Virus record (IMG/VR): IMGVR_UViG_3300037243_000174
Coordinates: 1 to 42,474 of that record
Origin: a virus
Lineage: Duplodnaviria > Caudoviricetes
Length of the DNA: 42,474 bases
Direction: 5' to 3' (one strand)
Below, piece by piece: positions 1 through 15,562 of the stretch. Each line of letters begins with the position of its first letter. Position 1 is the first letter of the stretch. The position numbers and the translations under genes are program-made. The notes under the pieces are model-generated. The model saw only the letters and a program-made list of their open reading frames with translations, searched no databases and was not told the DNA's origin.

Positions 1-3000
1 CCGCTCCGCCTGGGTGGGGGGCAGCCGCTTGTCCTTATCGGCGACCTGCTTGGCCTTCAGCTTGGCGAAGTTGTAGTGGTCATCCCACACCTTGTGGGTC
101 AGCCCATAGTCGATGATCACCGCATGCTGCTTGACATCGCCCCACTGCTCGGGCCGCTTCAGGTCGTCCGGGGACAGTTCATGCTGCTGCAGGCTGCGGA
201 CCAGTTTGCGGGTCCCCGGCGGTAGGTCGTCGATCACCACCTGCCGGTCAGCCGGGGTCTTGGCATGGGTGAGCTGGGTGATTCGGGAGCAGAAGGTGCC
301 GAAATCAAGCCCGAAGTCGCGCCGGAAGTCAGCGGGCACTAGCGCGTGGGCGTAGTCCACCACCAGCGCCAGGCTGCCCTGGGTGGCGAACAGCACCTGG
401 GCGATCGGCAGGTCGTTGAAGTTGCGGGCGATATGTTCCTCGACTTGATTCTGGGCCACCCCAGCCGGGTTCATGGCGATCTTGAGGGCATGCTCCTTGT
501 CGATCTGGTAGCAGATCCGGGAGCTGCCCTCGTCGCCCACCTGCAGGTAGCTCTCGGTGGCCCAGGTGCGCAGCAGCCACAGCTTGAACAGGGTGTCAGG
601 GTACGGCTTCAGCATCTTGTCCAGTGCACCCGCTTCGATCTGCTGGGCGCTCATGCCGACCAGCTTGGGCAGGGTGGTGATCCTGATCAGCGCGGTCATG
701 GGGAACGCCCCGCCCAGCTTGGTCAGGATCCACTTGGCGATCAGCGCTCCGTTCAGCTTGGTCCGGTCCAGCCGCTGAGTCTTGACCCGGCCATTGAAGC
801 CTTCGGTGAAAGCGACCGCGTCACTGGCGCCCTCGCCGTCGGGGCCCATCAAGAAGGAGAGCCGGTCGTCGGTGCTGGTGGTCAGGTAGGCCTCGACCGC
901 TGCCATGCCGGTATACAGGGTCAGGAACTTCCCGGCCCAGGCAACCACCTCGTTGGCGGTGTTCAGAGTGACCTGGGGCTGAGCCACCTGCCCCGGCTGG
1001 GGTGTGGCCGACTTCTTCCGCAGCAGCTTGGCGTGCTTACGTCGGGCGCCTCCTGACGGAAATCCGAGAGAGGCATTCGCCACAGCTCGTGGGACTGCAA
1101 ACTGCCCGTGGTTTTCCAGCCACTCATCGATGTCCCATTCCTCCCGCTGGTAGCTGTTAGCACCGGCGACGTCGAGCAGCTTGGCGTCACCAAGGTCAAA
1201 ATCCATATGAACCGCGTCCCTTGGCACCCGGATGCGCATGACCTCGGCTGGGCTCACCCCAGGAACCTCGCCGTAGCGCTGGGCCGCCTCATAGTCGTTG
1301 GTCAGGTATACCCACGGGGTGTTGAATCCTCTTTTTCGGATACGGGATGCCGCTTCCGGACTGGTTCCATGAAACAGTGTCACCGACCCTGATGCCTGCT
1401 TGCGCTGGGCCTCCAGCATCTCCTGCAGCTCGCCGCCCTGCTCCTTGGCCTCCTCGGCGTCGTCGACGTGGCTGGGGGTTTCCAGCGCGTGCACCAGCTT
1501 CTCGTGCTCATCGATCGCGTCGCCCAGGCTCATGGAGTAGGTGTCATCCTTGATCTGCTCGGCGGTCTTCGGCTGCAGCAGCTTGGCTACTCGTCGTCCG
1601 GCGGAGCGAGCAGGGGATTCGGGTAGGGGCAGGTCACCTGAGCGAGATAGCGCTGCATTTGCTCTGCCGAGCACTCGCTCGACCCCGTGACTGTCTTGGA
1701 CGGTGTAGAGATCACGTAGGATCCGTCGTCGTTCCAGGTCAGTGATCCCCCGCTGTAGGTTCTTCCATCTTTGGTCACGGCCTATGAACCCCTCAACGGT
1801 TAATTCTCGGTCGGATTGCAGGTCACGTCCATAAGAATCGCATAGCTCGGTAGAAATGGCCTTGACCTCGTAGTTGCAGCGATCCTGCCCCAGGTCGTTA
1901 TGCCTAGGGTTGTCGTTCATCTGGTCATACCCCGCACGGTCCCACTGGAACATGTGGGAAAGCTCGTGGGCAAAAAAGTTTTTAACTTCATGAACCAGAC
2001 TCGGAGAAAACCCGCTCAGCATGGATCGCACGTCCACCCCGTGTAGGTCCAGGGCCATCGCCTCCGGCCCCACCCCACCCCTGGCGGACACCGTGTCCCT
2101 CTTGCTCAGGTTCCACTGCACAGATAGGATGTGCACCCCTGCGGCAGGAATCCACTCGGGGATCACGTCGGCAACAGAAACCTGCGTCGACGCCGGTCCA
2201 GTGGTAGGGTTGTTACGGTAGGCCATGCGAACCGCCTCTTCGCACCTTCGCGCCAGCGTGTCCACCAGCTCTGGGGGGACTGGCACTGGGTGCGCCAGCT
2301 TCGGCTGCAGCAGCTTGGCCGTTCTCCCGGTTACTCTTCCCCGGGCCAGTTCTGGAATTCGCGCGGCAGCTCCGCTTCCAGCTCGGCTGGCAGTGGCTCG
2401 TCCGGGTTCAGCTCCGGATGGTTCATCCGCAGGTAGTTCTCCCTGGTAAGAGGAATCCCGTGGGATTTCATCGCCTCCAGTGTGGGGTTGAGCCCAGCTT
2501 GGGGTCTGGATCCCCCCGGCGTGATCGACAATGGCACTACGGGCGGTATCGGCATTGATGCTCCCCTTGGCGAACTTGGACCAGACGTGGTCGACCTGTG
2601 ACTGCAGTTTGGCATCTTTCTGCTCGGGCCTGAAGAGTCCCCTGACTGATTCCCAGGTGATCGACTGAAGCTCCCTGGGCTGGACGCCCAGCTCATTGGC
2701 TGCCCTGCGGTAGGCCTCAGCATAGAACCCGTAGAGGCCAGCGTTACCATGGACGGAACTCTTGACCGGGCCCGGCTCTCCGGGCTGACCCTTGACCGGG
2801 ATGTAGTTCTGGCCAAAGTTGTGCAGCACCTCGCGACTGGTCCCGGCCAAGGGGCGGATCAAAGCTGCGGCCACCGCATGGGTGTCAATCGTCACGTCTC
2901 CGCCGCTGGACAGAGGGGCGATCAGGTTGTTGTAGAAGCTGCGCACCTTGTGATTGGCGGTCTTCCCCTCAGGGCTGAGGATGCTGGAGATCACCTTGTT

Positions 3001-4536
3001 GTTGGTGGCCTCCACGCACCCGATCGCCTTGGAGATGGTGTCGAAGCCGCCCCAGGCCAGTCCGGTGGGGGTGCCATCGTTGTTCAGGTACCAGTCACCG
3101 AACTCCCCCTCCGGGGTGAGCTGGCGGCACTGGTGCGGGTTGGTGGCTTCGTCCCACGCCCGGACCCAGATGGCCATCCCGTAGAGATTGCCCTCCGCCT
3201 GCAGCTGGTGCAGAGTCTTACCCTCCAGCTCAGGTAGCAGGTCGACCGGACTGGGACGGCCGGAGGACGGCTTGGACCACACGTTGTCCTTACCCTTGGC
3301 CGGACCGGTGAGCAGGGCGGTCATGGCGGGGGACCAGGGCTGGTCGGCCTGCTGGCACACGGCGGTCATTACCCGCTCAGCCAGGGATACGTTCTGGAAC
3401 CAGTCCTTCTGGGGGGACAGGGAGGCCAGACACCCGGCCACCTGGTGGGGCTTCAGGCCGAACTTGGCCGACCAGCGGTGCACCAGCCGGTTACCACCGA
3501 CGTACCATGCCTTGGACCGCTTGCGCAGATTGGTGCCCCAGGAGTTGTAGAGCCAGATCAGGTTGTTCTTCATCAGCTCGATGATGGCTTCAGCCTGATC
3601 TTGCACGGAGCCCTTGCCGGTGATCCCGGTGAAGTTGGGGTAGCTCTCCAGTAGGGCGACATTGGCGGCAAAAGCGTCAGGATCCCGTGACAGGGGCTCA
3701 AGACCGGGCTGCAGCTTGTCGGCCCCATGGGGATTCTCCAGCGGCGTCTCGCGCGCCACCCCCCGGGGTGCCTCCTTGGCCCAGGGCTGGCGGGGGCTGA
3801 TGCGCATGTCGTCCAGGCTGTTGACCAGGTCGTCTTCGTCCTGCTCGATCACCGCGTCCCAGATCGGGTGCAGTCCGGTGAACCCCCCGACTGCCTTGAG
3901 GAACGGATTGAACTGATCGCCCAGGCCGGAGCGCAACTTGGCAACGAAAGCGTCGAAGGTCTTGACCCCACCCTGCATGGCCTGCTGGGCGATGCTGTAG
4001 AACTGCTCCAGCGTGGGGCCGTCGACCTGCAGCTGGTCGGCGACAATACCGCAGGAATCCAGCTTGGCGACGACGAAGCCTTTCTTCCAGCCGGTCCACT
4101 TCGGCTCCGGGGTTTTGACGAAGGCGTCGACAATGTCCCCCAGCACCTGCTGCTTGCGCAGCTTGTTCTCCAGCACCAGGGCCCGCACCCGCTGGTTGAT
4201 CTGGGTCGAAAGCATCTTGCTGTGCTTGACGCTGAAGATCAGCTCGACGTATTCCTGATCGAGCACCGCCCAGGCCTGCTCGGCAAACGCCTGGGCGGTG
4301 GCCAGCGGGGAGGGTCCCGGGGGCACCTGGACCAGGAACGGCTTGGAGCCATGGTTGCGGCCGTCTTCGCCGATCACGTGCAGCTCCCCGCGCAGACCGC
4401 CGCCTGTCAGCACCGGCTCGGCGTACAGCTCGAAGCTGGGCCCGGCGAGGCCTTCCAGGACGATCTTGACCACCCGGCCGCTGCCGTCGTCGATGTCGTG
4501 TTCAATGCGGGCGGTTACTTGGGTCACGGCGGCCAT
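1..4536 (-). CDS. Polyvalent protein A (3'-partial, >1512 aa): N-terminal unknown domain, HhH/EndoIII-like (DUF7178-like) domain, HExxH zincin, ART-like domain, protein-kinase-like domain
   Basis: Not in the ORF track. Hand translation from ATG 4536 (alternative GTG 4527, better spaced from GGAG) has no stop before base 1. Motifs: LSPQKDWFQN / HKVRSFYNN / VTIDTHA / PRELQSITWE (~3430-2640), HELSH (1954-1968), LFHGTS...VYLT (~1380-1290), GSSRICY..ALKIAMN..G..QN..E / DLKRPEQWG / IIDYG (~530-90). Confidence 0.9.
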   Translation of the reverse strand, partial: MAAVTQVTARIEHDIDDGSGRVVKIVLEGLAGPSFELYAEPVLTGGGLRGELHVIGEDGRNHGSKPFLVQVPPGPSPLATAQAFAEQAWAVLDQEYVELIFSVKHSKMLSTQINQRVRALVLENKLRKQQVLGDIVDAFVKTPEPKWTGWKKGFVVAKLDSCGIVADQLQVDGPTLEQFYSIAQQAMQGGVKTFDAFVAKLRSGLGDQFNPFLKAVGGFTGLHPIWDAVIEQDEDDLVNSLDDMRISPRQPWAKEAPRGVARETPLENPHGADKLQPGLEPLSRDPDAFAANVALLESYPNFTGITGKGSVQDQAEAIIELMKNNLIWLYNSWGTNLRKRSKAWYVGGNRLVHRWSAKFGLKPHQVAGCLASLSPQKDWFQNVSLAERVMTAVCQQADQPWSPAMTALLTGPAKGKDNVWSKPSSGRPSPVDLLPELEGKTLHQLQAEGNLYGMAIWVRAWDEATNPHQCRQLTPEGEFGDWYLNNDGTPTGLAWGGFDTISKAIGCVEATNNKVISSILSPEGKTANHKVRSFYNNLIAPLSSGGDVTIDTHAVAAALIRPLAGTSREVLHNFGQNYIPVKGQPGEPGPVKSSVHGNAGLYGFYAEAYRRAANELGVQPRELQSITWESVRGLFRPEQKDAKLQSQVDHVWSKFAKGSINADTARSAIVDHAGGIQTPSWAQPHTGGDEIPRDSSYQGELPADEPSGAEPGRATASRAGSGAAARIPELARGRVTGRTAKLLQPKLAHPVPVPPELVDTLARRCEEAVRMAYRNNPTTGPASTQVSVADVIPEWIPAAGVHILSVQWNLSKRDTVSARGGVGPEAMALDLHGVDVRSMLSGFSPSLVHEVKNFFAHELSHMFQWDRAGYDQMNDNPRHNDLGQDRCNYEVKAISTELCDSYGRDLQSDRELTVEGFIGRDQRWKNLQRGITDLERRRILRDLYTVQDSHGVERVLGRANAALSRSGDLPLPESPARSAGRRVAKLLQPKTAEQIKDDTYSMSLGDAIDEHEKLVHALETPSHVDDAEEAKEQGGELQEMLEAQRKQASGSVTLFHGTSPEAASRIRKRGFNTPWVYLTNDYEAAQRYGEVPGVSPAEVMRIRVPRDAVHMDFDLGDAKLLDVAGANSYQREEWDIDEWLENHGQFAVPRAVANASLGFPSGGARRKHAKLLRKKSATPQPGQVAQPQVTLNTANEVVAWAGKFLTLYTGMAAVEAYLTTSTDDRLSFLMGPDGEGASDAVAFTEGFNGRVKTQRLDRTKLNGALIAKWILTKLGGAFPMTALIRITTLPKLVGMSAQQIEAGALDKMLKPYPDTLFKLWLLRTWATESYLQVGDEGSSRICYQIDKEHALKIAMNPAGVAQNQVEEHIARNFNDLPIAQVLFATQGSLALVVDYAHALVPADFRRDFGLDFGTFCSRITQLTHAKTPADRQVVIDDLPPGTRKLVRSLQQHELSPDDLKRPEQWGDVKQHAVIIDYGLTHKVWDDHYNFAKLKAKQVADKDKRLPPTQAER
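1012..1032 (-). repeat. Linker motif variant encoding AKLLRKK
   Basis: GCCAAGCTGCTGCGGAAGAAG between the ART-like domain and the next domain of polyprotein A. Confidence 0.6.
1567..1587 (-). repeat. 21-nt linker repeat GCCAAGCTGCTGCAGCCGAAG (AKLLQPK), exact copy
   Basis: Identical to 2299-2319, 11743-11763 and 12505-12525; in frame at a domain boundary. Confidence 0.95.
1587..1778 (-). CDS. Candidate nested +1-frame peptide (63 aa) overlapping the zincin C-terminus and linker of polyprotein A
   Basis: GTG 1778 preceded by GAGGGG (10-nt spacer); TAG stop overlaps the first base of the AKLLQPK repeat; C-terminus QRYLAQVTCPYPNPLLAPPDDE. Confidence 0.4.
   Translation of the reverse strand: MTKDGRTYSGGSLTWNDDGSYVISTPSKTVTGSSECSAEQMQRYLAQVTCPYPNPLLAPPDDE
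2299..2319 (-). repeat. 21-nt linker repeat (AKLLQPK), exact copy
   Basis: Identical to the other three exact copies; immediately precedes a zincin domain. Confidence 0.95.
2331..2555 (-). CDS. Candidate nested +1-frame small acidic protein (74 aa) following the HhH/EndoIII-like domain
   Basis: AAGGGGAG SD 5 nt before ATG 2555; product MPIPP...LEAMKSHGIPLTRENYLRMNHPELNPDEPLPAELEAELPREFQNWPGEE is protein-like while the host frame here is a low-complexity G/A/R/P linker; stop lies just before the AKLLQPK repeat. Confidence 0.6.
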   Translation of the reverse strand: MPIPPVVPLSITPGGSRPQAGLNPTLEAMKSHGIPLTRENYLRMNHPELNPDEPLPAELEAELPREFQNWPGEE

Positions 4537-4549
4537 CTCCACTTAGGAA

Positions 4550-7500
4550 TCAGGGAGCAGTCGGGGCGGCCTTCAGCTTCTGCTTCCGCTCAGCCCAGCG
4601 CACCAGGTAGTCGTCCACCGCCAGGGCCACGTTGCGGATCAGGTAGCGCCGGTTGTCCTGGTTCCAGTGCCGGTTGTAGCGCTTCCAGGTGGCTGAGCGC
4701 ATCAGCAGCTGCTCCATCGGCAGCACGTCCGGCAGGCGCTGGACGCCCAGGTGATCCTCCACCTCCTTGATGATCATCTGCAGGAAGGCGCGCACCTCGT
4801 TGGGCGCGTTGAAGTATTCCAGGCCGCCCTTGGCGTAGCTGGGCCGGTCGGTGTTGTATTCGTGCCGCCGGGGGTCCATGAGGTGGGTCAGCTCGTGGTA
4901 GACCACGCTGCGCAGCTCGTTCCTCAGCGCGTAGGTGTCGGCATCGTCCCAGACCATGTAGAGGCAGTGGTGGTCCAGGGTGACGACGATGGTCGGCGGA
5001 GCGGACCCCTCATCATGCAGGGAGCCCTTGACCACGAACCGGCCGACGCTGCGCTTGGGGAACTTCACGTAGACCAGCTCCAGCTTGATCGGTTCGTTGT
5101 CGTACCACTCCGGGTGGGCATGCACGTGGCGCCCGGCCGGGTTGAGCCACTCCTTGCTCGCCTCCGGGCCGTCCAGCAGGGCCCGCTCGTAGCCCTTGGG
5201 GGGATGGTGCAGGATGGTGTCCAGCAGGATCGAGAGGATCTGGCCGACCGCGCCGGACGGCAGGGGGATGGCCCGGGCGGTCTTGGCCACCTGACCCTTC
5301 ACCACCTCGGCGCCGAACTGCTCCTGGAACCGCTTCACCTCGCTGCTTGGGACCAGCACCGCGACCCGGGTCTCGCCGGAGTCCCGCAGCACCGCCCACC
5401 GATGGCGGCCGTCGCCGAACATGATGCTGCCGCTCGGGGTCAAGCCCATCATGGGGACGTCGATCGGGGTGTCCGGGTTGTCCTTCAGCCACTGCTGGAA
5501 CTGGGAGTAGCGGTTGCCGATGGACGCTCCCGAGCCCCCCGCCCCTACATAGAAGTTGCTGTCCTGGGAGTAGCTGGCCTCGACCGCAGCCACGTCGACG
5601 GTGATCAGGGTGTAGTCGCGGTAGGTCCGCTTGGGCTGGTAGAGCAGGGCCTGCTTGTCGGCGGCCATCAAGGCCTTGTTCCCGGGATCCCAGGTCCCCT
5701 TGTTCTTGATCGACTTGAGCTGGGCCGGGTCGAACACGAAGCCGGTGAAGGTGCCGTCCTTCTCCGGCAGGATGGCGCCGTCGTAGCCCCGGTGCTTGAA
5801 CTCGCACAGCATGAGCTGGTCGTACTCCTTCCATCCCGCCGGGTTCGAGATCTTGGCGAACATCTCCAGGATGATGCCCTTCCCGGCGGCGCCGACCTCA
5901 CCGGCCTCGATCGCTGAGCGGTCGTTGGTGAACCAGATGATGCCCTGGGTGGTCAGCTTGGGGTTGAACGAGCGGAACTTCTTGTCGGTGCCGTGGTAGA
6001 CCACGACCGGCTGGCCGCTGGCGTCGACCACCTTGCTGTCGCTGAACCAGGACTTGAAGGCCGGGGACTCGGTGGGGTCCTGGACGGGCGCAGCCGCCGC
6101 CTTCGCCACCCCGTCTCCTCCCAACCATGTCCTGAACTCGGCCACGCCCATGGTCTTGATCGAGCCGAGCCGGTCGTTCTCCCAGCCCGCCGGGTAGTGC
6201 ATCAGGTAGCCGCGCTTGGCCTCCTCCAGGCTGGTGAAGCCGAGCATGCACTTCGTCTCGTCGAAGGAGCCGTCCTTCTTCAGCTGGTTGACCACGAACA
6301 CCTGCAGGGCGTCGTGACTGGGCCCGACGTAGACGTCGATGGTCTCCCCGTCTCCCCCCAGGGGACCGCCTTCGATGCAGCCGTAGTCGAGCAGGTAGAC
6401 CCGGGCCCAGGCCTTGCCCTCCTCGTCCTCGCCCAGCTTGGTGGACCCGGCCGGGTACTCGATTGCCACCGGGAAGCCGGAGACGGTCAGTCGGCGGCGG
6501 ATGGGGTCGTCCCCGGCAGTTCGTCGGGCAGCGACATGTAGCGCACGGAGCGAGGACCTATGGGGGTTGGGCAGGGCACCATCAGATCCCACCGGGGTCC
6601 GTGGCTCCATAGGGGCTCCACCTCCCCCTTGGGATTTATCCAGGACCCAGGCGAGGTCTCGGACAATTCTGTTTCTTCCGGCTTCAGGCATTTGTTCTCG
6701 GATGGCAGACCATCGCCAATCGGCATTGAGGAACTCCTCTATGGTTGTATCCCGCTCAGGTTTATCGGCTGTCTCTGGATGCGGTCGAGTCTGCAGCCAC
6801 TTCCTGAAGTCCATGCATAGTTCAGTCGCTAAGGCTTTGACCTCGAGGGGGTGGGCCATGGGGAGGGGGCCCCTGCGATTGCTGGCTTCCTGGTAGTGCT
6901 CTGCTCCCTCGTAGAGAGCCTGGGCTGCATGAGACAATTCGTGGGATACAGTGGACCACAGGTCCTTCAGTAGGAACGCGGGGGGAGCACTGGCCACCTC
7001 GCGGGATAAGGTGGTCGTCTTTATGATGATACCCGGGGGGGTCGCGTAGGTGCCTGCGTCCGCAACGGACGGGGTGCTACAGGGCACATTGGACACGCCT
7101 AGGTAGACCTTGAACTCGTAGCCCGAAAAACCTGCTAGGGCTTCGTCCAAAACGTAGTTGGATAGATCGGTGTCGACCCACATGCTGTTCGAGGCAACTG
7201 CACCGTCCCACGCCGCACCCGATGTGGCGGCAGCCAGCCCCTTCAGCTTTTGGGCCAACTCGCTTGTGACCGCGTCAACCAGCCCTGGGGCTATGCTGAT
7301 GGGCGCGGCAGTCTTGGCCGAGGCGGTCATCCGGGCATCAGCCGGATCGAATGCCCCGCTGTTGCCGATGGCGGACTTGATCTGGTTGGGGCTGAACGCC
7401 ACGTACATCGATCGCCCTGCGGCTTTCCCGGTGCCGACGATGATCATGCCGTCGTGCCCGGCCTTCTTGCACTTGGCCTGCAGGTCCTCCCAGTTGCTGT

Positions 7501-7870
7501 CGTACCAGAGCTGGGTCCACTGGCCGCCGGACTTGCGCACGTAGGGGTACTTGATCGACAGGTAGACCGGCTTGACGTTGGGCCCGGCCCCGCCCTTGTC
7601 CGACAGGCCCTTGTGGATCTCCGACCAGCGGGCCACGTCCTCCGCCTCGTCCGGGTCGCTGGTGAAGAAGAACCCCTCCCGGCCAGGGAACCTGAATTCC
7701 CCGTAGTTGCTGTTCTGCTTGGCCATCTCGAACGTGTCGAAATCGTGGGCGGTGCCGTGAAACACCATCAGCGGTCCACCGGAGGGGTCGACGACCTTGG
7801 ACCCGGTGAACCAGGCCTCGAACTCAGGGGTCGCGGGCGCCTTACGAGGCGGGACGAAGTTGGCGGGCAT
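4550..7870 (-). CDS. Polyvalent protein B (1106 aa): ART-PolyVal-like, HExxH zincin, inorganic-pyrophosphatase-like, second ART-PolyVal-like, ParB-like, C-terminal zincin
   Basis: AAAGGA SD. Two F.xWF.xSKVVD..G.P.V.(F/Y)HGT...G.DG...F.P.Q.KS..N.G.(F/W)D units; HELSH 6929-6943; IEYPAGS..DYG..GGDGETIDVYVGP..FDETKCMLGF; DGRHRW; HELTH 4883-4897. Confidence 0.92.
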   Translation of the reverse strand: MPANFVPPRKAPATPEFEAWFTGSKVVDPSGGPLMVFHGTAHDFDTFEMAKQNSNYGEFRFPGREGFFFTSDPDEAEDVARWSEIHKGLSDKGGAGPNVKPVYLSIKYPYVRKSGGQWTQLWYDSNWEDLQAKCKKAGHDGMIIVGTGKAAGRSMYVAFSPNQIKSAIGNSGAFDPADARMTASAKTAAPISIAPGLVDAVTSELAQKLKGLAAATSGAAWDGAVASNSMWVDTDLSNYVLDEALAGFSGYEFKVYLGVSNVPCSTPSVADAGTYATPPGIIIKTTTLSREVASAPPAFLLKDLWSTVSHELSHAAQALYEGAEHYQEASNRRGPLPMAHPLEVKALATELCMDFRKWLQTRPHPETADKPERDTTIEEFLNADWRWSAIREQMPEAGRNRIVRDLAWVLDKSQGGGGAPMEPRTPVGSDGALPNPHRSSLRALHVAARRTAGDDPIRRRLTVSGFPVAIEYPAGSTKLGEDEEGKAWARVYLLDYGCIEGGPLGGDGETIDVYVGPSHDALQVFVVNQLKKDGSFDETKCMLGFTSLEEAKRGYLMHYPAGWENDRLGSIKTMGVAEFRTWLGGDGVAKAAAAPVQDPTESPAFKSWFSDSKVVDASGQPVVVYHGTDKKFRSFNPKLTTQGIIWFTNDRSAIEAGEVGAAGKGIILEMFAKISNPAGWKEYDQLMLCEFKHRGYDGAILPEKDGTFTGFVFDPAQLKSIKNKGTWDPGNKALMAADKQALLYQPKRTYRDYTLITVDVAAVEASYSQDSNFYVGAGGSGASIGNRYSQFQQWLKDNPDTPIDVPMMGLTPSGSIMFGDGRHRWAVLRDSGETRVAVLVPSSEVKRFQEQFGAEVVKGQVAKTARAIPLPSGAVGQILSILLDTILHHPPKGYERALLDGPEASKEWLNPAGRHVHAHPEWYDNEPIKLELVYVKFPKRSVGRFVVKGSLHDEGSAPPTIVVTLDHHCLYMVWDDADTYALRNELRSVVYHELTHLMDPRRHEYNTDRPSYAKGGLEYFNAPNEVRAFLQMIIKEVEDHLGVQRLPDVLPMEQLLMRSATWKRYNRHWNQDNRRYLIRNVALAVDDYLVRWAERKQKLKAAPTAP
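6487..6726 (-). CDS. Candidate nested +1-frame peptide (79 aa) overlapping the zincin C-terminus and linker of polyprotein B
   Basis: AGAGGAG SD 7 nt before ATG 6726; C-terminal half WINPKGEVEPLWSHGPRWDLMVPCPTPIGPRSVRYMSLPDELPG spans a low-complexity host linker. Confidence 0.45.
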   Translation of the reverse strand: MPIGDGLPSENKCLKPEETELSETSPGSWINPKGEVEPLWSHGPRWDLMVPCPTPIGPRSVRYMSLPDELPGTTPSAAD

Positions 7871-8180
7871 TTGTGGTTCCTTTCGTGCGCAGGTGCTTAT
7901 GCTTCTTGGTGCCCATGGCCTGGGCCGCCTGCAGCGGAGCCATGTGCTGCGGGGTCATCGGCTCTTCCGGCCCGGGCAGGCCCAGCAGCGCGGCCTCCAC
8001 CAGCGGGCGCAGGGCCCGGCCGACCGTCTCGCCCTTGACCAGACCTTCCCACGGCTTCAACGTGGCCAGCCGGGCATAGACCTCGGCCCACAGGTACGGA
8101 GTCTTGGGTAGCACACCGTCACGGGCCTTGATGGACAGGATTTCACGTTGGACCAGCTTCATGACTTCGGCCTCGGTCAT
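7842..8180 (-). CDS. Hypothetical protein (112 aa)
   Basis: GAGGG SD; short overlaps with both neighbours; normal amphipathic composition. Confidence 0.7.
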   Translation of the reverse strand: MTEAEVMKLVQREILSIKARDGVLPKTPYLWAEVYARLATLKPWEGLVKGETVGRALRPLVEAALLGLPGPEEPMTPQHMAPLQAAQAMGTKKHKHLRTKGTTNARQLRPAS

Positions 8181-9393
8181 CTTCGCCCTCTACCTTGGCG
8201 GGGGAAGTTGCGACGATCGGGTGCGCCCGGCGCCAGCGAAACCGCTTGCCCGAGTTCTGCTCCTGGTGGTGCTGCGGGCAGGCGGGCCAGTTGATCGCCG
8301 GGTCCTTGGGGCAGCCGCAGCGGTAGCACTTGCCCTTCCGTTTGAACCGCAGGTAGCGCCGGTGCTGGTAGTCCTTGGAGTAGGCGGCCCGTTCCTCCTT
8401 GGTCATCCGGGCCTGGGCGGCGATGGCCTTCCAGATCCGCTGGCCAATGGTCGTCTCCCACAGGGTGAGCGCTTCCTCCCGGTGCATATGACAGAGGTAG
8501 TCCCCGTGCTTGTAGGGGTTATCGCAGCGCAGGCAGAGCCCCTGCTGCTGGCGACTCTGTTTCACCGCGCGGTAGCGCTGGGCGATCTTCTGTTTGCACT
8601 CAGGACAGCGGGTGCCCTTCTCGGGGAGCGGGTTCTTCCAGCAGGCCCGGCAGGGGGCGAAGCCCAAGCGGACGGTGGCAGCCGCGTAGTTATGCGCGTA
8701 GTGCTCTCGCTGCAGCTGAGTCCTGCACCCGGGACGATGACACACGTCGGGGACGGTTCGCCCTTTACCCTCGTAGGGAGGAATCTTGGCCCCACAGAAC
8801 CGGCAGGCCAGCTTGCCGTCCAATAGGTCCTGGTAGCGCTGACTGACGGGCCACTGGCGCCAGCTGGGGGGTCGGAACGGCGGCACCGGTAGGGTGGGAT
8901 TCTGGGGCACCGCCACCAGCGGCAGGAGGTGGAGTGGCAGGTAGCAGCTCGGGCTCGGCCACTCCTTGGCCTCTGGGGTCATCTGCCGATCCCCGCTGCC
9001 CTCCAGCACCCAGATCGGCCGGAACCCCAACAGGGCCAGACGGACCAGCACCTCCGCTCCGATCCTGGCGTGGTAGCCCTTCTCTAGGATGCAGGTGGAC
9101 CCCTCGGTACGGTGGAGCAACCGGCCAAACTGGGTCAGGGTCAGGCCCAGGAGATCCTGGATATGGGCGATCCGGGCACCGATCGCCGCCGTCGGCCGGG
9201 GGCGGGGCGGCCGCTGAAAGGAACGGACCGGCGGGGGTGGGTCGGGCTTCAAGGCCCCGGCCTGATCTAGGACCCTGACCACCTCGGCCCGGGTCCGGAG
9301 CGACCACCGGATCAGGTTCTTGATGGTGGCTTGGGTGGGGTGCTTGCGGTAGCGGGAGACCATTTCGGCCTTCACGGACGGGGTCAGTTTCAT
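8143..9393 (-). CDS. HTH-containing, multi-CxxC/CxxH zinc-finger DNA-binding protein (~416 aa)
   Basis: Start moved to ATG 9393, which forms an ATGA overlap with the upstream stop; Xre-like IGARIAHIQDLLGLTLTQFGRLL; CRFC, CHRPGC, CRAC, CPEC, CLRC, CHMH, CYRC, CPQH; very basic. Confidence 0.8.
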   Translation of the reverse strand: MKLTPSVKAEMVSRYRKHPTQATIKNLIRWSLRTRAEVVRVLDQAGALKPDPPPPVRSFQRPPRPRPTAAIGARIAHIQDLLGLTLTQFGRLLHRTEGSTCILEKGYHARIGAEVLVRLALLGFRPIWVLEGSGDRQMTPEAKEWPSPSCYLPLHLLPLVAVPQNPTLPVPPFRPPSWRQWPVSQRYQDLLDGKLACRFCGAKIPPYEGKGRTVPDVCHRPGCRTQLQREHYAHNYAAATVRLGFAPCRACWKNPLPEKGTRCPECKQKIAQRYRAVKQSRQQQGLCLRCDNPYKHGDYLCHMHREEALTLWETTIGQRIWKAIAAQARMTKEERAAYSKDYQHRRYLRFKRKGKCYRCGCPKDPAINWPACPQHHQEQNSGKRFRWRRAHPIVATSPAKVEGEDDRGRSHEAGPT

Positions 9394-9833
9394 GCTGGCG
9401 GCTCCAGTCGCTTGCGGTAGACCCACAAGGTGGTGGGGTGGATTCGTAGCCGGGCGGCCAGGTGCTGCCACTGCAGATCACAGCGCCGGGATAGGCCGAT
9501 CAGGGTGCGCACTTGGGCCTCCCGTTCACCCCGTTCGTGACCGTGACCGGGACTATCGATCCCGGCCCGGCCCAGGGCATCCCGCACGGCGTAGAAGCTG
9601 CATCCCATGGTCCGGGCCGTATGATCCATGGAGCGGAGCTGCTGGAACGCGGCCACGATCTCGGCGTCGGTGCGGTACATCGCCTCAGGACCCCGGGTGA
9701 TGGCCCCGGCACGCCATAGCCGGGCGTAGACGGCGCCGGTGGTCAGACCGTAGTCCGCCGCAATCTCAGCGATCGGGGTATGTCGGATCTGGTATAGGCT
9801 GATGATGACCTCGGTCTCGGGGTAATGGTCCAT
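9390..9833 (-). CDS. Tandem helix-turn-helix DNA-binding protein (147 aa)
   Basis: Three HTH-like units: IAEIAADYGLTTGAVYARL, MDHTARTMGCSFYAVRDAL, WQHLAARLRIHPTTLWVYR. Confidence 0.82.
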   Translation of the reverse strand: MDHYPETEVIISLYQIRHTPIAEIAADYGLTTGAVYARLWRAGAITRGPEAMYRTDAEIVAAFQQLRSMDHTARTMGCSFYAVRDALGRAGIDSPGHGHERGEREAQVRTLIGLSRRCDLQWQHLAARLRIHPTTLWVYRKRLEPPA

Positions 9834-9839
9834 ACCTCT

Positions 9840-9845
9840 ATGATA
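9840..9845 (-). promoter_or_regulatory. Possible -10 box (TATCAT) for a leaderless transcript of the HTH gene
   Basis: TATCAT sits 6 nt before ATG 9833 in a 112-nt intergenic gap; no clear -35. Confidence 0.3.
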
Positions 9846-9945
9846 GCGGGCGGCTACTCGTTCACGGCCTGGGGCAGACGACGCTTCTTTGGGGGCATAA
9901 GCCCAAAGTGTCTTAGATACGACCTCACCGCCTGGACACCTAGTC

Positions 9946-12900
9946 CTACCTCGCAGGAAATGTCCTCTGTCTCAACTCGACCTCTTTGAACAGCTTACCC
10001 CAACTCTGGGGTCCGGCAAATAGGATCAAGGTCCCGGGGAACCGATCGGCTCCGTTCCAGGTGTGGTCGTCAAGCAGCAGGTCCTGGGGCCTACCCACGG
10101 CCCCCTTGTCCTTCACCAGCTGGACGTGCCCAGGAGGTACGCTGGGGAACTCCTCCGCCATCCATTCCCGCTTCTCCTGGCAGGATTCCTCCCAGCGGTC
10201 ATCAGCGGGCTTGCTCAGGATGTAGACGGCCCCCGGGGCCATGCGCTGCAGCTTGGCCACCGCTTCCTTGGCCCCGGGCAGCACCTCCAGGTGGCGGAAG
10301 GCACCGGGCACGTTGAGCCATTCGTCGGGGGGGACCCCGGCCTCCTTGGCCGCCTTTGAATAAGCCGCGAGGGTGTCGTCCAGGTCGAGGTAGACCCGGA
10401 ACCCCCGGGCCAACTTGCTGCGCTTGTGCATAAGGTTGTAGGGTAGGTGCTTCCGAGCCCATCGGGCCGCTTCTGATACCTCGCCGGGGTCCAGGGGGCG
10501 TCCCACCCCTTTCGTGATCACCGAGAGATCGATGGGGCGCGGAATGGTTCCAGCACATCCACGGCTCAGATCAGCCAGGGTCGCCTCCCCCCTGGCGTCG
10601 ATCCCCATCCCCGACTCTGCGTCATAAACGAAGGCGTGGTGGCAGTCCCCACCCTCAGCGGGTGACCCGTCGCCATCGTCGAATAGGCCGTACATGGGGA
10701 GGCCGGTGATTCGGTGCAGAGCCACCGCCATGTCGAAACACCGGCCCCGCATCCACTCCCCAGCGTAGTCGGCCACCTTTGGCCGTAGCAGCTTGGCTCG
10801 TTTGCGCACAGGGACCTCTTCCTCTGATGGTAGCTGCTGGCTGGCCACCAAGCGCGCGTCGCCCTGGTCGAAGCTTCCTGAGTTCTCGACCCCCTTGATC
10901 TGGGTCGGCTCGAACACGACATAGACGTCCATGGGGTTGGGGTCCTCGGTGTTGAGGATGACCGCGCCGTCGTGCCCGCCCTCCTTGGCGTCGGCGATGA
11001 CCTCGGCGAACGACCGGCCGAGGCGACGCCCCTGGTGGTCCTCGACCAGCGGGTTGAGCATCCGCAGGTAGACGTCCTTGATCTCGCTGGTGCCCCAGTC
11101 GGGGGTGAAGTCCTGGATGGTGTTCAGGATCTGCTGGATGATCTCGATGGTTTTGCCCCCACCGGCGACCGACTGCTCCGCCTTCTGGACCGCCTGCAGC
11201 TCCCACTTCTTGGGCTTGGCCTTGCGCTCGACGTCGGCCTTGTAGCGCCCCGCCAGCTGCTGGTAGACCTCGAGCCGATCCCGCATCGAGCCGACGACCG
11301 CTTCCCGGACCTGATCTGCCGTCGGGTTCTTGGGCAACCGCTGGCGCCAGTCCCCGGCCATGAACAAGGTCCCTTCGGAGTAGCCGGTGTAGATCTTGCC
11401 GGTCAAGCCCTGGGCGTAGAGCGCCTCCCGGATCTTGGTCTCGGCTTGGCGCAGAGCGGTGCCGGTGGGGTCGGTCATGTTGGCGTAGGTCGCGGCCGCC
11501 TCCAGGTCCGGGGTGAAGAAGAAGCCCAGCTTGGAGCTGGGGGAGCCGGTGTTGCTACCCAAGGCTTTCGGGTCGAAGGCGTCGAAGCCACCCTTGGGGG
11601 TGCCGTGGTGGAACACCATGGGCTGGCCCGTACTGTCGACCGTCTTGCTGGCCCCGAACCAACGCCAGAAGTTGGCGATGCCTTCAGGGGTTGGGTGGAT
11701 GGGGGCACCGGCCGCGTTGGTGGCACCAGATCCGGCCGCCACCTTCGGCTGCAGCAGCTTGGCCCTCACCTGCACCATTCGGGGTGCTCGGTGTACATCT
11801 TGATCCGCGCCCAATACATTCTTTCGGCGAAGGTCTGCGACTTCGGGGTGCTCTCCGAGGAATTTGGTGTAGATGTACCCGAGGTCTCGGAGGACGTAAC
11901 GAACTGACTTTGGTCCGAGTTGCTGGGCAATTTCTGAGAATCCGTCGTATCCATGGATGAATGCCTCCGGCGTAAGTTTAGGATTCTGTTCGAGTTCGCT
12001 GGCGAATAGGTCGGCCATCTCGGCCCCATACGCTTTTCCCTCGTCGCGATCAGTTGGGGAGGGGGTGTGCGCCCCGAATGCCTCTAGTCCCTGGAATGCG
12101 CACTGATACATGTGAGCAAACTCGTGGATCAGGTTGTCCATCACGTAGCTCTTTACCGCGAGGGATAGGCTTACCGCTTCTTCACGTGAGGTGTCCCCGA
12201 ACACGTTCACAACAATCTGACGGCGCGAGGCGTCGAAGTGCCCCGGTGTGTCCGATGGGTCAGCCTTGCGGAGCCGAAGGATCACGTACAGGGGGTCTTG
12301 TCCCAGCTTGTTGGCGATCTCGGGCGCGGTCCGCTGTATGCAAGGAAACGCATCCACCGAGGCAGATACCCCGACGCGGGGAGACGACATCAAACGGCTC
12401 CACTGATCTGGTGAGGTGGACCGGGCCACTTCACTCAGTGCCGTAAGCAGGTTTGAGCGAATCTCCTGCACCATAGCCTCTGGAACCTGGATCGGCCGGG
12501 CCACCTTCGGCTGCAGCAGCTTGGCGGTCCGCCCAGCCACCGTGTTGTTCCAGAGCCACTTCAGGTAGGTCTGCACCTCGTACACGTCGGGGCTGACCCG
12601 GCCCGGGTTGTAGATCACGTCGTTCAGGTTCAGCTTGGGCAGGGACTCGCGCAGCTCGTCACCGTCCGGCATCGTCGCCCGCCGGAACTCGATGCCTGCC
12701 TCCCGCACCTGCTTCAGCTGCTCCATCTCCTGGTCGTTCAGCTTGCGGCCCAGGGCCCAGGCGTTCACCACGGCGGGCTCACCGGTGGCGCCGCGCTTGG
12801 GGTTGATCATGATCAGGGTCCACGGCCGTGACGGGGCCTTGCGGGTCTTCCGGTCCCCGGCCAGGAAGCTGGCGAACAGGTTCTCCGCTCCCTGCGCTCC

Positions 12901-14919
12901 GGCGATCGCCGCCTGCAGGGCCTCGGTCTCCTGCTTGGTGACCGGGCTGCTCCACTCGGGCCCCTTGGCGTGCGGCTGGGTCAGGAACCGGTTCGTGGTC
13001 TTCACCACGTAGGCCTTGGCGAAGCTCTCCTGGACGTAGTCATCCATCCTCAGGATGATCTTCGAGGAAACCGTGGGGGCCCAGCAGTAGGCGGGCCGAG
13101 GGTGGCTCGGGATCTGCAGGATGAACAGGTAGGCCGGGCGGGACTCCCACTCCAGCTGGTTCATGTCGCTGGTCTGGGTCACGAAGCCCGCACCGTAGCG
13201 CGCGTTGATCTTCTCGGCCTCGGCCTGCCAGTAGGTGCCGTGGCCATCGCCGATCCCGGCCAGGGCCTCCTGCGCCTCCTTGAGCGGCTTGCCGACCACC
13301 ATGACGTGGATTGCCACGTGATGGCAGACCTCATGCGCCACCACCTTGCGCAGGTGGTTCAGGTCCACCGCCAGCCCTTTCTGCAGGGTGATGTCGGAGT
13401 TGGCACCGGTGACGATGTCCTGGTTGAGGTTGAGCGAGTTGGTATGGCACAGGCCCAGGGTGTTGCTGGAGTTGCTGACGTAGCGGATCTTGGGGGGTGT
13501 GCACTTCCCCTCGGGGTCCAGGGCGGTCAGGAACTCCTGCATGATGGGCTGGAGGTCGGGGATCTTAGGGGCGGCGGCCTTCGGCTGCAGTAGCTTCGCC
13601 ATCTTGCCGTGCCACAGCTCAGTCACCTTGTTGGTCGCCAGGAAGTCGGCCAGTGGAAGGTCGGCTGTACGGTTGGCATCTCCGCGCTCCTCGCAGTAGA
13701 CCCGAGTGCGGGGGACCAGGTTCTGCTCCTGCAGGAACGCCTGGAACTTCTCGAACTGAAGCTTGGGGATTTTCCAGGCACAAATGACCGCCTCACCGTC
13801 GGTGATGGCGACGCGTGACCACCCCTTATCCATCAGCGTTTTAGTGAAATCGACGTCGTCCATGGCTCCCTGGGTGATGGCTCCTCCCCCGGGCTCCACC
13901 GAGTCCGCGACCTGCTCGTGCGCGGGATCTCCGATCCAGTAGCCCAGCACGTTTGCGGCGTGCTCCTGATGGCCCCATCTCGCTTCCTCAATCTCACCAG
14001 CCGGGTCCATCCAGAACTCGCCGGTAAGATTGTGGGAGGCGGTCTTGTCCTTCGCCTTGGGCAGATCCTTCAGCCTATCCTCCAACTCGGGCACCTGGTG
14101 GTCCTGCAAGCCGTCTACGAGCTTCGCGGCCTCTGCCAGGGCGTTGGGGGGCACCTCACCGGCTTCGGCCCTCCAGGCGTCAACCACGGGCTCCCATAGG
14201 TCCTTCCTGAGCTTCGCCAGGGTCTCGTCATCCGGGACCTCCTCCCGGTCGTTCTCGAAGCTGGGCTGGGGGATGATCACGACCTCGTCAGCCTTCTCCG
14301 CGTCCACGATCCCCAGGTCGTAAACCCGGGCCCACATGTCCACCATCGGCACGCTGACCAGGATGTCCTCCGGCTGGGCGATGGCGGTGACCAGGCGCCG
14401 GTCGACGTCCCCGAACACCTTGGCGTCGTAGATGTCCGTGCTCCAGGCGCTGGCGAAGTCGTATTGCTCCTTCCAGCCGTCCTCCCCCTGCAGCTTCTCG
14501 TTCCGGAACACCCGGACTGCCTCGGTGGGCCGGAACGGGGCCAGCAGGTCGGCCATGCTGAGCAGGCGCTGGGTGATGTCCTCCCGGTCGGCGTCGAACG
14601 AAACCCAGAACCGGGCCAGATGGCGGACTCGTAGGACATCCACCTCGGTCGGGATGGTGCGATCGGACTGGGAGACCCAGTTCGTGGGATCTTCGCCTTT
14701 GATTCGCTTGAACTCCGCTACGGCCTCCGCCGCGAAGGTCCGGTGCAGGAACGCGACCAGAACGGAGCGCTGGCCCAGGGATGCCACCCGGGCGGCCCGG
14801 GTCGCGCCCGCTCCGGCAGTCAGGCGCAGAGGACCCGCCACGGCCAGCTGGGCCGCCTTGGCGTTGAGGCCCTGCTGAACGGCGGCGAGCATGAGTTCGC
14901 TGGGGGAGGACATTTTCAT
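9946..14919 (-). CDS. Polyvalent protein C (~1657 aa): R-S-E ART-like, W..P.G..H domain, SprT-like peptidase, HExxH zincin, ART-PolyVal-like with insertion, Cys-His-Asp domain, HAD 5'(3')-deoxyribonucleotidase-like
   Basis: Start moved to ATG 14919, just after the upstream stop. VFR..SAWST..EKADEVV; AHEVCHH...GHGTYWQ (13321-13335); HEFAH (12112-12126); NFWRWFGASKTVD..FHHGT..GFFFT..GHDG; GRCFDMAVALH..HAFV..IDARG; YLDLDDTL..ILSKP..EKREW..LLLDD. Confidence 0.92.
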   Translation of the reverse strand: MKMSSPSELMLAAVQQGLNAKAAQLAVAGPLRLTAGAGATRAARVASLGQRSVLVAFLHRTFAAEAVAEFKRIKGEDPTNWVSQSDRTIPTEVDVLRVRHLARFWVSFDADREDITQRLLSMADLLAPFRPTEAVRVFRNEKLQGEDGWKEQYDFASAWSTDIYDAKVFGDVDRRLVTAIAQPEDILVSVPMVDMWARVYDLGIVDAEKADEVVIIPQPSFENDREEVPDDETLAKLRKDLWEPVVDAWRAEAGEVPPNALAEAAKLVDGLQDHQVPELEDRLKDLPKAKDKTASHNLTGEFWMDPAGEIEEARWGHQEHAANVLGYWIGDPAHEQVADSVEPGGGAITQGAMDDVDFTKTLMDKGWSRVAITDGEAVICAWKIPKLQFEKFQAFLQEQNLVPRTRVYCEERGDANRTADLPLADFLATNKVTELWHGKMAKLLQPKAAAPKIPDLQPIMQEFLTALDPEGKCTPPKIRYVSNSSNTLGLCHTNSLNLNQDIVTGANSDITLQKGLAVDLNHLRKVVAHEVCHHVAIHVMVVGKPLKEAQEALAGIGDGHGTYWQAEAEKINARYGAGFVTQTSDMNQLEWESRPAYLFILQIPSHPRPAYCWAPTVSSKIILRMDDYVQESFAKAYVVKTTNRFLTQPHAKGPEWSSPVTKQETEALQAAIAGAQGAENLFASFLAGDRKTRKAPSRPWTLIMINPKRGATGEPAVVNAWALGRKLNDQEMEQLKQVREAGIEFRRATMPDGDELRESLPKLNLNDVIYNPGRVSPDVYEVQTYLKWLWNNTVAGRTAKLLQPKVARPIQVPEAMVQEIRSNLLTALSEVARSTSPDQWSRLMSSPRVGVSASVDAFPCIQRTAPEIANKLGQDPLYVILRLRKADPSDTPGHFDASRRQIVVNVFGDTSREEAVSLSLAVKSYVMDNLIHEFAHMYQCAFQGLEAFGAHTPSPTDRDEGKAYGAEMADLFASELEQNPKLTPEAFIHGYDGFSEIAQQLGPKSVRYVLRDLGYIYTKFLGEHPEVADLRRKNVLGADQDVHRAPRMVQVRAKLLQPKVAAGSGATNAAGAPIHPTPEGIANFWRWFGASKTVDSTGQPMVFHHGTPKGGFDAFDPKALGSNTGSPSSKLGFFFTPDLEAAATYANMTDPTGTALRQAETKIREALYAQGLTGKIYTGYSEGTLFMAGDWRQRLPKNPTADQVREAVVGSMRDRLEVYQQLAGRYKADVERKAKPKKWELQAVQKAEQSVAGGGKTIEIIQQILNTIQDFTPDWGTSEIKDVYLRMLNPLVEDHQGRRLGRSFAEVIADAKEGGHDGAVILNTEDPNPMDVYVVFEPTQIKGVENSGSFDQGDARLVASQQLPSEEEVPVRKRAKLLRPKVADYAGEWMRGRCFDMAVALHRITGLPMYGLFDDGDGSPAEGGDCHHAFVYDAESGMGIDARGEATLADLSRGCAGTIPRPIDLSVITKGVGRPLDPGEVSEAARWARKHLPYNLMHKRSKLARGFRVYLDLDDTLAAYSKAAKEAGVPPDEWLNVPGAFRHLEVLPGAKEAVAKLQRMAPGAVYILSKPADDRWEESCQEKREWMAEEFPSVPPGHVQLVKDKGAVGRPQDLLLDDHTWNGADRFPGTLILFAGPQSWGKLFKEVELRQRTFPAR
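10777..10797 (-). repeat. Linker motif variant encoding AKLLRPK
   Basis: GCCAAGCTGCTACGGCCAAAG, between the ART-PolyVal-like and Cys-His-Asp domains. Confidence 0.8.
11743..11763 (-). repeat. 21-nt linker repeat (AKLLQPK), exact copy
   Basis: Identical to the other exact copies; between zincin and ART-PolyVal-like domains. Confidence 0.95.
11766..11954 (-). CDS. Candidate nested +1-frame peptide (62 aa) overlapping the zincin C-terminus and linker of polyprotein C
   Basis: GGAGG SD 9 nt before ATG 11954; ends FAERMYWARIKMYTEHPEWCR with TGA 2 nt before the AKLLQPK repeat. Confidence 0.42.
   Translation of the reverse strand: MDTTDSQKLPSNSDQSQFVTSSETSGTSTPNSSESTPKSQTFAERMYWARIKMYTEHPEWCR
12505..12525 (-). 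repeat. 21-nt linker repeat (AKLLQPK), exact copy
   Basis: Identical to the other exact copies; immediately precedes a zincin domain. Confidence 0.95.
13579..13599 (-). repeat. Linker repeat (AKLLQPK) with two synonymous changes
   Basis: GCGAAGCTACTGCAGCCGAAG; precedes the SprT-like domain. Confidence 0.9.
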
Positions 14920-14932
14920 AGGATACCCGCCC

Positions 14933-15562
14933 TCACATCTGCAAGTCCCACTGGAACACGATGTCAATGGATGCGGGCAGGTAGAAGCTACCGAATGTGG
15001 CGAAATTCAGCATGGTCATACTATCACTGCTGTTTGTCGTCGGGTTCCAGAACGCGGCGGTCAGGGGGTCGGTCCCGGCCCCACTATTAGCTGATTGTAA
15101 TCCTCCGCCCAGCAGTCCCATCTCCATCAGGGGGACATTGATGGCATCGGTGGTGGCGTTGAACGAGGTGAGGAACCGGACCAGGGTGGTCGGGACGGCT
15201 GAGACCGAGCTGTCAGGGTTCAGGAACAGCACCCCGCCGGGCGAGATCAGCGGCTTGCGCTTGACCGGATTGTAGGGTGCGGTCTCCGTGCCCAGGGCAG
15301 CGGGGGGCGGGGTGCTGGAGCTGCTGTTGGCCCAGGCCGAGGCTCCGGCGCCGACCACCAGTCCCCAGACCCCCCAGCAGGGGCCATCTCCCGCCGTCAT
15401 CTGAGGCCAGTTCATCTGGGCCAAGTGGCGGGCGAACAGGTTGCTGGCCCCGGCGACGATGGTATTGTCCTGGTCCAGCAGGACGTAGGCCGGATCATCG
15501 GCACTATAGACCTTGATGTGGCCATGCTTGATTGGACGGGGTGAGGCCAGGTCTTCGCGCAT
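14933..15562 (-). CDS. Phage baseplate/tail-fibre attachment-type structural protein (209 aa)
   Basis: N.IV..A..LFARHL, GLVVGAG, VRFLTSF, LMEMGLLGG, MLNFATF, IVFQWDL pattern typical of phage tail-collar/baseplate proteins; GGAG SD. Confidence 0.75.
   Translation of the reverse strand: MREDLASPRPIKHGHIKVYSADDPAYVLLDQDNTIVAGASNLFARHLAQMNWPQMTAGDGPCWGVWGLVVGAGASAWANSSSSTPPPAALGTETAPYNPVKRKPLISPGGVLFLNPDSSVSAVPTTLVRFLTSFNATTDAINVPLMEMGLLGGGLQSANSGAGTDPLTAAFWNPTTNSSDSMTMLNFATFGSFYLPASIDIVFQWDLQM

Follow-up and report, generated by a model that had tools for sequence, protein, structure and literature searches.

Whole genes that are read in another frame of a longer gene, and that possess their own ribosome-binding site, are exemplified by Rz1 within Rz of phage lambda and by E within D of phage phiX174, with Rz1 in addition being a partner of the protein which it overlaps. 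To our knowledge, tailed phages seldom possess an entire gene that is nested in another frame and retained across genomes as divergent as those described below. A precedent for acidic immunity proteins directed at DNA-acting toxins is provided by Rehh and its acidic partner RehhI (10.64898/2026.09.22.753552, accessible part of that work), and the proteins Ugi, p56 and SAUGI are described, in the accessible parts of their literature, as inhibitors of host uracil-DNA glycosylases. The locus analysed here shares features with each of these systems, being a small and mostly acidic gene that is embedded in the frame of a predicted DNA-acting phage protein.

A small gene in the +1 frame of a polyvalent-type protein

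In the current work, “the window” denotes the whole stretch of DNA that was analysed, namely a linear virus record of 42,474 nt (IMGVR_UViG_3300037243_000174) that is present in peat metagenome runs and has an estimated completeness of 12%. Its minus strand contains a baseplate gene, a gene whose product has an Ig domain, and several large ORFs in which ART-PolyVal, InPase and SprT-like domains are found, the large ORFs being read as polyvalent type because of this domain signature (accessible part of PMC5512222). The last of these ORFs specifies a large protein that joins unrelated effector domains and that is located among polyvalent and virion genes, as is typical of polyvalent proteins; from this gene context, and by analogy with the proteins covered by the accessible part of PMC5512222, the host protein is presumably packaged in the virion and injected. 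The features to which the analysis refers are the following:

1..4542 (ORF 4542..<1), minus strand: host polyvalent-type protein of 1514+ aa, open at the window edge
2473..3690, minus strand: long form of the DUF7178 domain (host residues 285-690), with a predicted fold of the HhH glycosylase superfamily
2947..2949, minus strand: Lys532, invariant (HKVR motif), candidate catalytic lysine from HhH Lys-Asp chemistry
2884..2886, minus strand: Asp553, invariant (TIDTH motif), candidate catalytic aspartate
2561..2568, minus strand: Shine-Dalgarno (SD) sequence AAGGGGAG, 5 nt before the ATG, spelled by host Lys-Gly-Ser codons
2331..2555, minus strand: nested gene of 74 aa in the +1 frame of the host ORF (ATG 2555-2553, stop ending at 2331)
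2490..2555, minus strand: non-conserved leader at the N-terminus of the small protein, in overlap with the last helix of the host domain and its P-x-W motif
2352..2489, minus strand: conserved core of the small protein (residues 23-68), three short helices predicted, +1 frame under selection
2334..2472, minus strand: host-frame linker that shadows the nested gene
1954..1968, minus strand: HExxH motif in the host domain that follows, which has no Pfam hit and resembles a metallopeptidase in this motif only

A first-pass annotation of the window had marked the 74-aa ORF as a nested gene preceded by an SD sequence with a 5-nt spacer; the translation proved to be as quoted, as did the reading of the host frame, and the strand, which had been left unstated, is the minus strand. 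The SD sequence AAGGGGAG corresponds to a duplex of -7.6 kcal/mol. Over 2502-2353, GC3 minus GC2 as counted in the host frame is -0.34, which is the lowest value among 1117 segments of 150 nt from eight long ORFs (median +0.36), and the frame switch is thus visible in the window itself. Contigs from other peat runs span 2213-2526, 2434-2584, 2408-2558 and 2427-2635 with zero substitutions or indels, and since these contigs are identical over the overlap, the two-frame arrangement is not the result of an assembly slip. RNA-library contigs also touch the nested-gene region, such contigs being uninformative as to strand, level and translation. On the sequence evidence, 2555..2331 is confirmed as a real gene nested in the host +1 frame.

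The nested gene product belongs to a large family

A profile search, as suggested by the first-pass annotation, returned numerous homologs, the family comprising 776 clusters at 50% identity (three-sequence profile, E<=0.001), with lengths of mostly 50-130 aa among the best 150 of these clusters. Across 140 aligned proteins, residues T37, R38, Y41, E58, E60 and P64 of the small protein are conserved at 94-99% and the first 20 residues exhibit no conservation. The conserved core, for which the model consists of three short helices (pLDDT 87), is mostly hydrophobic and contains the motifs T-R-E-N-Y and E-x-E-x-x-L-P. Tandem double copies of the small domain occur in four proteins (P0027, P0062, P0155 and P0156), and in another (P0159) it is fused to an HTH_17 domain. 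One spurious locus (L001), obtained in a single-sequence viral scan, was left out of all counts.

The family did not match any described group: no PDB fold match exceeded Z 2.4, no family model was found in Pfam, PHROGs, PADLOC or NCBIfam, the ESM Atlas was likewise without a match, a Pfam scan of 150 small-family proteins yielded only single-member chance hits, and tblastn of the small protein against named phages and plasmids produced no credible match. In the GenBank phage OP947163 the small gene is present and unannotated, with only a CDS of >3000 aa annotated over it, which illustrates that current annotation overlooks nested cases.

The earlier description of the product as acidic and possibly DNA-mimicking is borne out in its first part, given that the small protein of the window has a net charge of -6, that 113 of 140 database proteins are net negative, and that the core is acidic in 34 of 41 clusters. 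The mimicry itself appears weak, considering the hydrophobic nature of the core, its neutral or basic charge in 7 of 41 clusters, and the net charge of the DUF7178 domains, which ranges from -15 to +21 and is not consistently basic.

The overlap is constrained in the +1 frame and carries its own start site

For 17 close pairs of loci (star pairs, which are non-independent), substitutions in the core overlap number 34, 31 and 105 at the first, second and third +1 codon positions, respectively, and in the DUF7178 domain 27, 13 and 292 by host codon position. Across 714 sites of the overlap these pairs display 49 amino-acid changes in the +1 frame versus 127 in the host frame, and over 23 nested clusters the mean pair identity is 0.42 in the +1 frame versus 0.23 in the host frame. 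By these measures the +1 frame is the constrained one in the core overlap and the host frame stays open, in agreement with the first-pass description of the host frame as a shadow of the nested gene, and the possibility that the host linker would be the better conserved of the two did not materialize. In the 5’ part of the overlap it is the host wobble position that takes most changes (42 vs 26 and 15). The constraints are therefore staggered, with changes falling on the host wobble in the 5’ part and sparing the +1 frame in the core. The last helix of the host domain specifies the SD sequence, the ATG and the free leader, and the small-protein core provides the host with a low-complexity linker; G, A, S, P, R and T make up 68% of such host-frame linkers versus 40% of the DUF7178 domain.

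The start site was assessed by requiring an ATG with an SD of -5 kcal/mol or better at 15-45 codons before the conserved Thr, following removal of 4 of 45 clusters that were unanchorable. Such a site was retrieved in 33 of 41 clusters, whereas among 323 control segments it occurred in 46.

On the tree, the nested and the non-nested state are intermingled, with long nesting requiring 10 changes (at least 2 forced), and switching between these states has therefore recurred. Because the tree is a quick, midpoint-rooted version it does not provide the order of events, and the direction of this switching is one that we infer. In the simplest account, a downstream gene that already overlapped the host ORF would have become nested once the fusion of additional domains extended the host frame across it, the sequence of that gene thereby coming to serve as a linker when read in the host frame. 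The idea that the partner-less clade retains a remnant of this shadow in its host frame was rejected, no positive score being obtained with the profile built from 23 shadows.

The host domain is predicted to have an HhH glycosylase-superfamily fold

The model of host residues 285-690 (pLDDT 93, pTM 0.92) was compared to known structures by an exhaustive search, in which ranks 1-22 were all members of the HhH superfamily, with OGG2 (3n0u) on top (Z 9.2, rmsd 3.7, 181 aligned residues) and queuine salvage enzymes, EndoIII-3 and AGOG among the other top-ranked folds; a Z of 9.2 is moderate for a helical protein and was found by the exhaustive aligner only. Foldseek against the PDB retrieved nothing at E<=0.001, and a profile search of PDB sequences with the host domain gave no significant match. 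The long DUF7178 domain is thus predicted, on the basis of its model, to adopt the HhH glycosylase-superfamily fold. The first-pass designation as HhH/EndoIII-like is accordingly supported as to superfamily, with OGG2 rather than EndoIII as the nearest structure.

All 54 alignment rows contain K532 and D553, and from their motifs these invariant residues are probably equivalent to the known catalytic Lys and Asp; a Lys-Asp chemistry that matches this pair is described for the HhH glycosylase Dag1 (accessible part of 10.1101/2025.10.29.685425). The long form of the domain, which is located in head/tail gene blocks or in polyvalent proteins, is characterized by an insertion of about 90 profile positions and by extra C-terminal helices. 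Short forms of ~200 aa, present in three phages among small non-structural genes, are without this insertion and these helices, and the short relative in phage Cece was annotated as ‘glycosylase’ by its depositors.

The small gene accompanies the DUF7178 domain

The small gene is located behind a DUF7178 domain in all 34 viral loci of the first set (L025 included), and is wholly nested in 24 of these; its frame in 33 of the loci is +1 in 29 cases, +2 in three, and in frame after a stop in one. In a second viral set, which shares some contigs with the first and for which the A4 seed was drawn from linked members, all 67 loci place the small gene no further than about 0.5 kb from the domain end: 62 directly behind it (61 in +1), one about 450 nt behind it, and four inverted. 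The link to the domain with the HKVRSFYNN and TIDTHA motifs, as anticipated by the first-pass annotation, is consequently present in every viral locus of both sets; homologs unlinked to the domain do exist outside viral contigs (see below). In the four inverted loci the domain is on the opposite strand and ends 60 nt from the small-gene match. Two of these (L170 1343-1549 and L175 2977-3186) are arranged tail to tail, with stops that overlap by 4 nt and with their own strong SD, the remaining two being L171 and L178.

When approached from the side of the domain, using the best 80 of 165 loci and excluding three incomplete ones, 50 of 77 assessable loci (27 of 37 clusters) carry the small gene, which among these 50 is in the +1 frame in 48 and wholly nested in 35. 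The module is found between portal and major head genes, among head-closure/tail genes, before the terminase gene, and inside polyvalent proteins with differing domain sets, and the host domains of phages that keep the nested gene are only about 40% identical. The link between domain and gene survives both relocation and inversion of the module. In one database protein from a single contig (P0161), DUF7178 and the small domain are fused in frame, with several conserved residues altered. The three short stand-alone DUF7178 forms, which lie outside virion blocks, are encoded by genomes from which the small gene is absent.

Partner-less domains and orphan copies

Among the same best 80 of 165 loci, 27 of the 77 assessable ones are without a small-gene match, two of these having a divergent positional candidate; one such candidate is a divergent +1 ORF at the expected place (L097, about 6990-7250; E 7e-5 for a single comparison) in a sister of the clade that lost the small gene. 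A search that matched OP947163 as positive control showed the family to be absent from six genomes (G001, G002, G003, G006, CRP-738 and zth2-2) that encode the long domain and are complete or nearly so. The enzymes of these six genomes keep Lys532, Asp553 and nearly all conserved residues, and no residue or charge change marks partner-less enzymes off from partnered ones. The tree requires five changes for the absent state, at least two of them forced. The small gene is dispensable. CRP-738, a cultured roseophage, carries its partner-less long domain as gp40 between portal and coat genes (L140 6777-9284).

Metagenome contigs provided 22 loci, of which 11 are linked to the domain and one is cut at the contig edge, all being of one lineage, and 10 show no domain nearby, with only three of these 10 having over 3 kb upstream. 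Both genome loci (2 of 2) are orphans in Acidobacteriota MAGs, and a search of the two orphan-bearing MAGs for the DUF7178 domain gave no match. One of them (G009) contains four orphan copies (L144-L147) in small islands that also harbour RHH-like and integrase-like ORFs; one of the copies adjoins a tRNA-Ser gene and an integrase-like ORF. A loose first look at 400 other Acidobacteriota genomes revealed no match to the small family, and for the protein of another orphan (L117) no viral relative was found. A further orphan (L116) is located near a Doc-like pair of toxin-antitoxin type, as recognised by eye.

Other ORFs and motifs in the window

Three further ORFs of the window lie behind HExxH domains. 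The first (6726..6487, minus strand) is a 79-aa +1 ORF with an SD of -8.6 and a net charge of -6, behind the HExxH domain of a 1106-aa ORF; its codon-position signal of -0.08 is the second most extreme, and a viral scan with its host region found no relative. The second (1778..1587, minus strand) starts with GTG and encodes 63 aa; it is read in a frame other than that of the host protein, immediately follows the HExxH domain of the latter, and shows a dip in the codon-position signal (0.02) and no match in a Pfam search. The third (12029/11954..11766, minus strand) is a +1 ORF of 87 or 62 aa, with an SD of -9.5 for the shorter version, behind the HExxH domain of a 1673-aa ORF, and a homolog search for it found none. 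In addition, a short motif resembling A-K-L-L-Q-P-K recurs between the domains of three large ORFs (1-14967, minus strand), and such motifs are possibly processing or packaging signals.

Discussion

A conserved +1 gene that stays beside the same domain across very different phages is likely to be that domain's own off-switch. Our preferred reading, which we consider to have an even chance of being correct, is therefore that the small gene, being conserved and having its own ribosome-binding site, encodes a cognate inhibitor of the virion-region domain with the predicted HhH glycosylase fold, an inhibitory role also having been proposed in the first-pass annotation. The large protein would be packed into the virion and then injected, as has been proposed for polyvalent proteins, and Lys532 and Asp553 would endow its domain with a base-excising or AP-lyase activity directed against the DNA of the host or of a rival. 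One late mRNA would give rise to the large virion protein and, by internal initiation, to the small partner, which would use its conserved T-R-E-N-Y and E-x-E-x-x-L-P surfaces to bind the domain and silence it while progeny DNA is made and packaged. The partner would be left behind or stripped at injection, so that the enzyme is freed. Phages without the partner may manage otherwise, for example through absence of the substrate from their own DNA, and orphan copies may serve as immunity or decoys. The pair is not classed as a toxin-immunity pair, because obligate co-occurrence fails: the partner gene is adjacent to the effector domain, and intact effectors are not always accompanied by it.

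A possible, though distinctly less probable, explanation is that the small protein binds the domain as an accessory subunit, i.e. as a chaperone, a packaging adaptor or an activating/specificity subunit, rather than as an inhibitor. The same linkage data would apply, the core is largely hydrophobic, and the gene occurs with the long virion-region form and is absent in the three short-form phages. Furthermore, loss without any change in catalytic residues fits a non-essential helper, and an in-frame fusion fits a subunit better than a removable inhibitor, although the fused protein is known from one contig and has several conserved residues altered. Moreover, the orphans in domain-free bacterial islands would have nothing to chaperone.

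It is those orphans, located in small integrated elements (one of them beside tRNA-Ser and an integrase-like ORF), that lend some credit to a third explanation, which we regard as unlikely: the small protein would act in the same pathway on another target, blocking a host HhH glycosylase, AP endonuclease or defence glycosylase, and would be co-inherited with its neighbour without contacting it. The effect of such a block, on this equally unlikely account, would be that lesions made by the phage domain persist or that phage DNA is spared. The phage glycosylase inhibitors Ugi and p56 act on host enzymes, according to the accessible parts of their literature, and bacteria are described as using HhH glycosylases in defence (accessible part of 10.1101/2025.10.29.685425). 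Nevertheless, adjacency to the 3’ end of one particular domain, maintained through relocation and inversion, is tighter than pathway partners usually need.

A programmed +1 frameshift, in which the ORF would provide a second possible C-terminus and a short protein consisting of domain and tail would thereby be released from the polyprotein, is very improbable. The predominance of the +1 frame (29 of 33 linked loci, and 48 of 50 from the best 80 of 165) would be expected from it, as would the existence of one in-frame fusion, yet this bias is accounted for by the SD and ATG being written in the last helix of the host domain. Independent initiation is favoured over frameshifting because the ATG with its SD is conserved and because members exist as stand-alone orphans, on the opposite strand and, downstream of the host stop, in frames 0 and +2; in addition, an in-frame stop is present 0-3 codons upstream of the chosen ATG in 7 of 38 clusters. 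That the +1 ORF is a chance by-product or an assembly error, as the low recognition score in the hitless ESM Atlas search and the lack of family models might suggest, is already contradicted by conservation across 776 clusters, by +1-frame selection, by the codon-position signal and by the unchanged sequence in other runs, and its probability is negligible.

The cognate-inhibitor reading can be extended to a broader one that we put forward as speculative and rather doubtful: polyvalent proteins may hide +1 safety-catch genes behind their effector domains, the present gene silencing an injected glycosylase weapon during assembly, the orphans acting as bacterial or satellite immunity, and the three HExxH-adjacent +1 ORFs of the window following the same design.

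The nested partner gene is real and apparently undescribed so far, given that no literature on ‘DUF7178’ was found, nor any description of the domain-small gene pair, in a search with thin coverage of subscription journals. The pair represents a direct handle on an uncharacterised and widespread HhH-fold phage effector; should the domain be toxic, the partner would permit its cloning and assay. It also makes testable how phages keep the enzymes of injected polyvalent proteins quiet during production. An HhH glycosylase inhibitor, if true, would constitute a new inhibitor class, as those found in the accessible literature act on uracil-DNA glycosylase or on deoxyinosine repair.

Compared with known systems, the DUF7178 domain resembles OGG2 (3n0u), AGOG, EndoIII, MutY, the queuine salvage enzyme and Dag1/Dag2 (accessible part of 10.1101/2025.10.29.685425) in its predicted fold and its invariant Lys-Asp pair, whereas it differs from known HhH glycosylases by identities of under 13%, by its large insertion and by being embedded in virion-region proteins. 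The host ORFs resemble polyvalent proteins (accessible part of PMC5512222) in carrying ART-PolyVal, InPase, LPD3/22/38, ddrB-ParB and PBECR5 domains; the main text of that paper contains zero occurrences of ‘glycosylase’ or ‘overlap’, and its supplements may list the domain under another name.

As in Rehh/RehhI, as far as the accessible part of that work describes the system, a small and mostly acidic gene is located directly behind a predicted DNA-acting domain and orphan copies occur elsewhere, but here the effector is a phage HhH-fold domain and the putative partner is nested in the effector's frame and often lost. The small protein is like Ugi, p56 and SAUGI, as these are described in the accessible literature, in being a small acidic protein tied to a glycosylase, and unlike them in its all-helical prediction, in lacking a PDB fold match and in its position beside the phage's own domain.

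Unlike in Rz1/Rz and E/D, finally, it is here the nested frame that is constrained and the host frame that serves as a disposable linker, and the two genes shift between nested, overlapping, tandem and inverted layouts.
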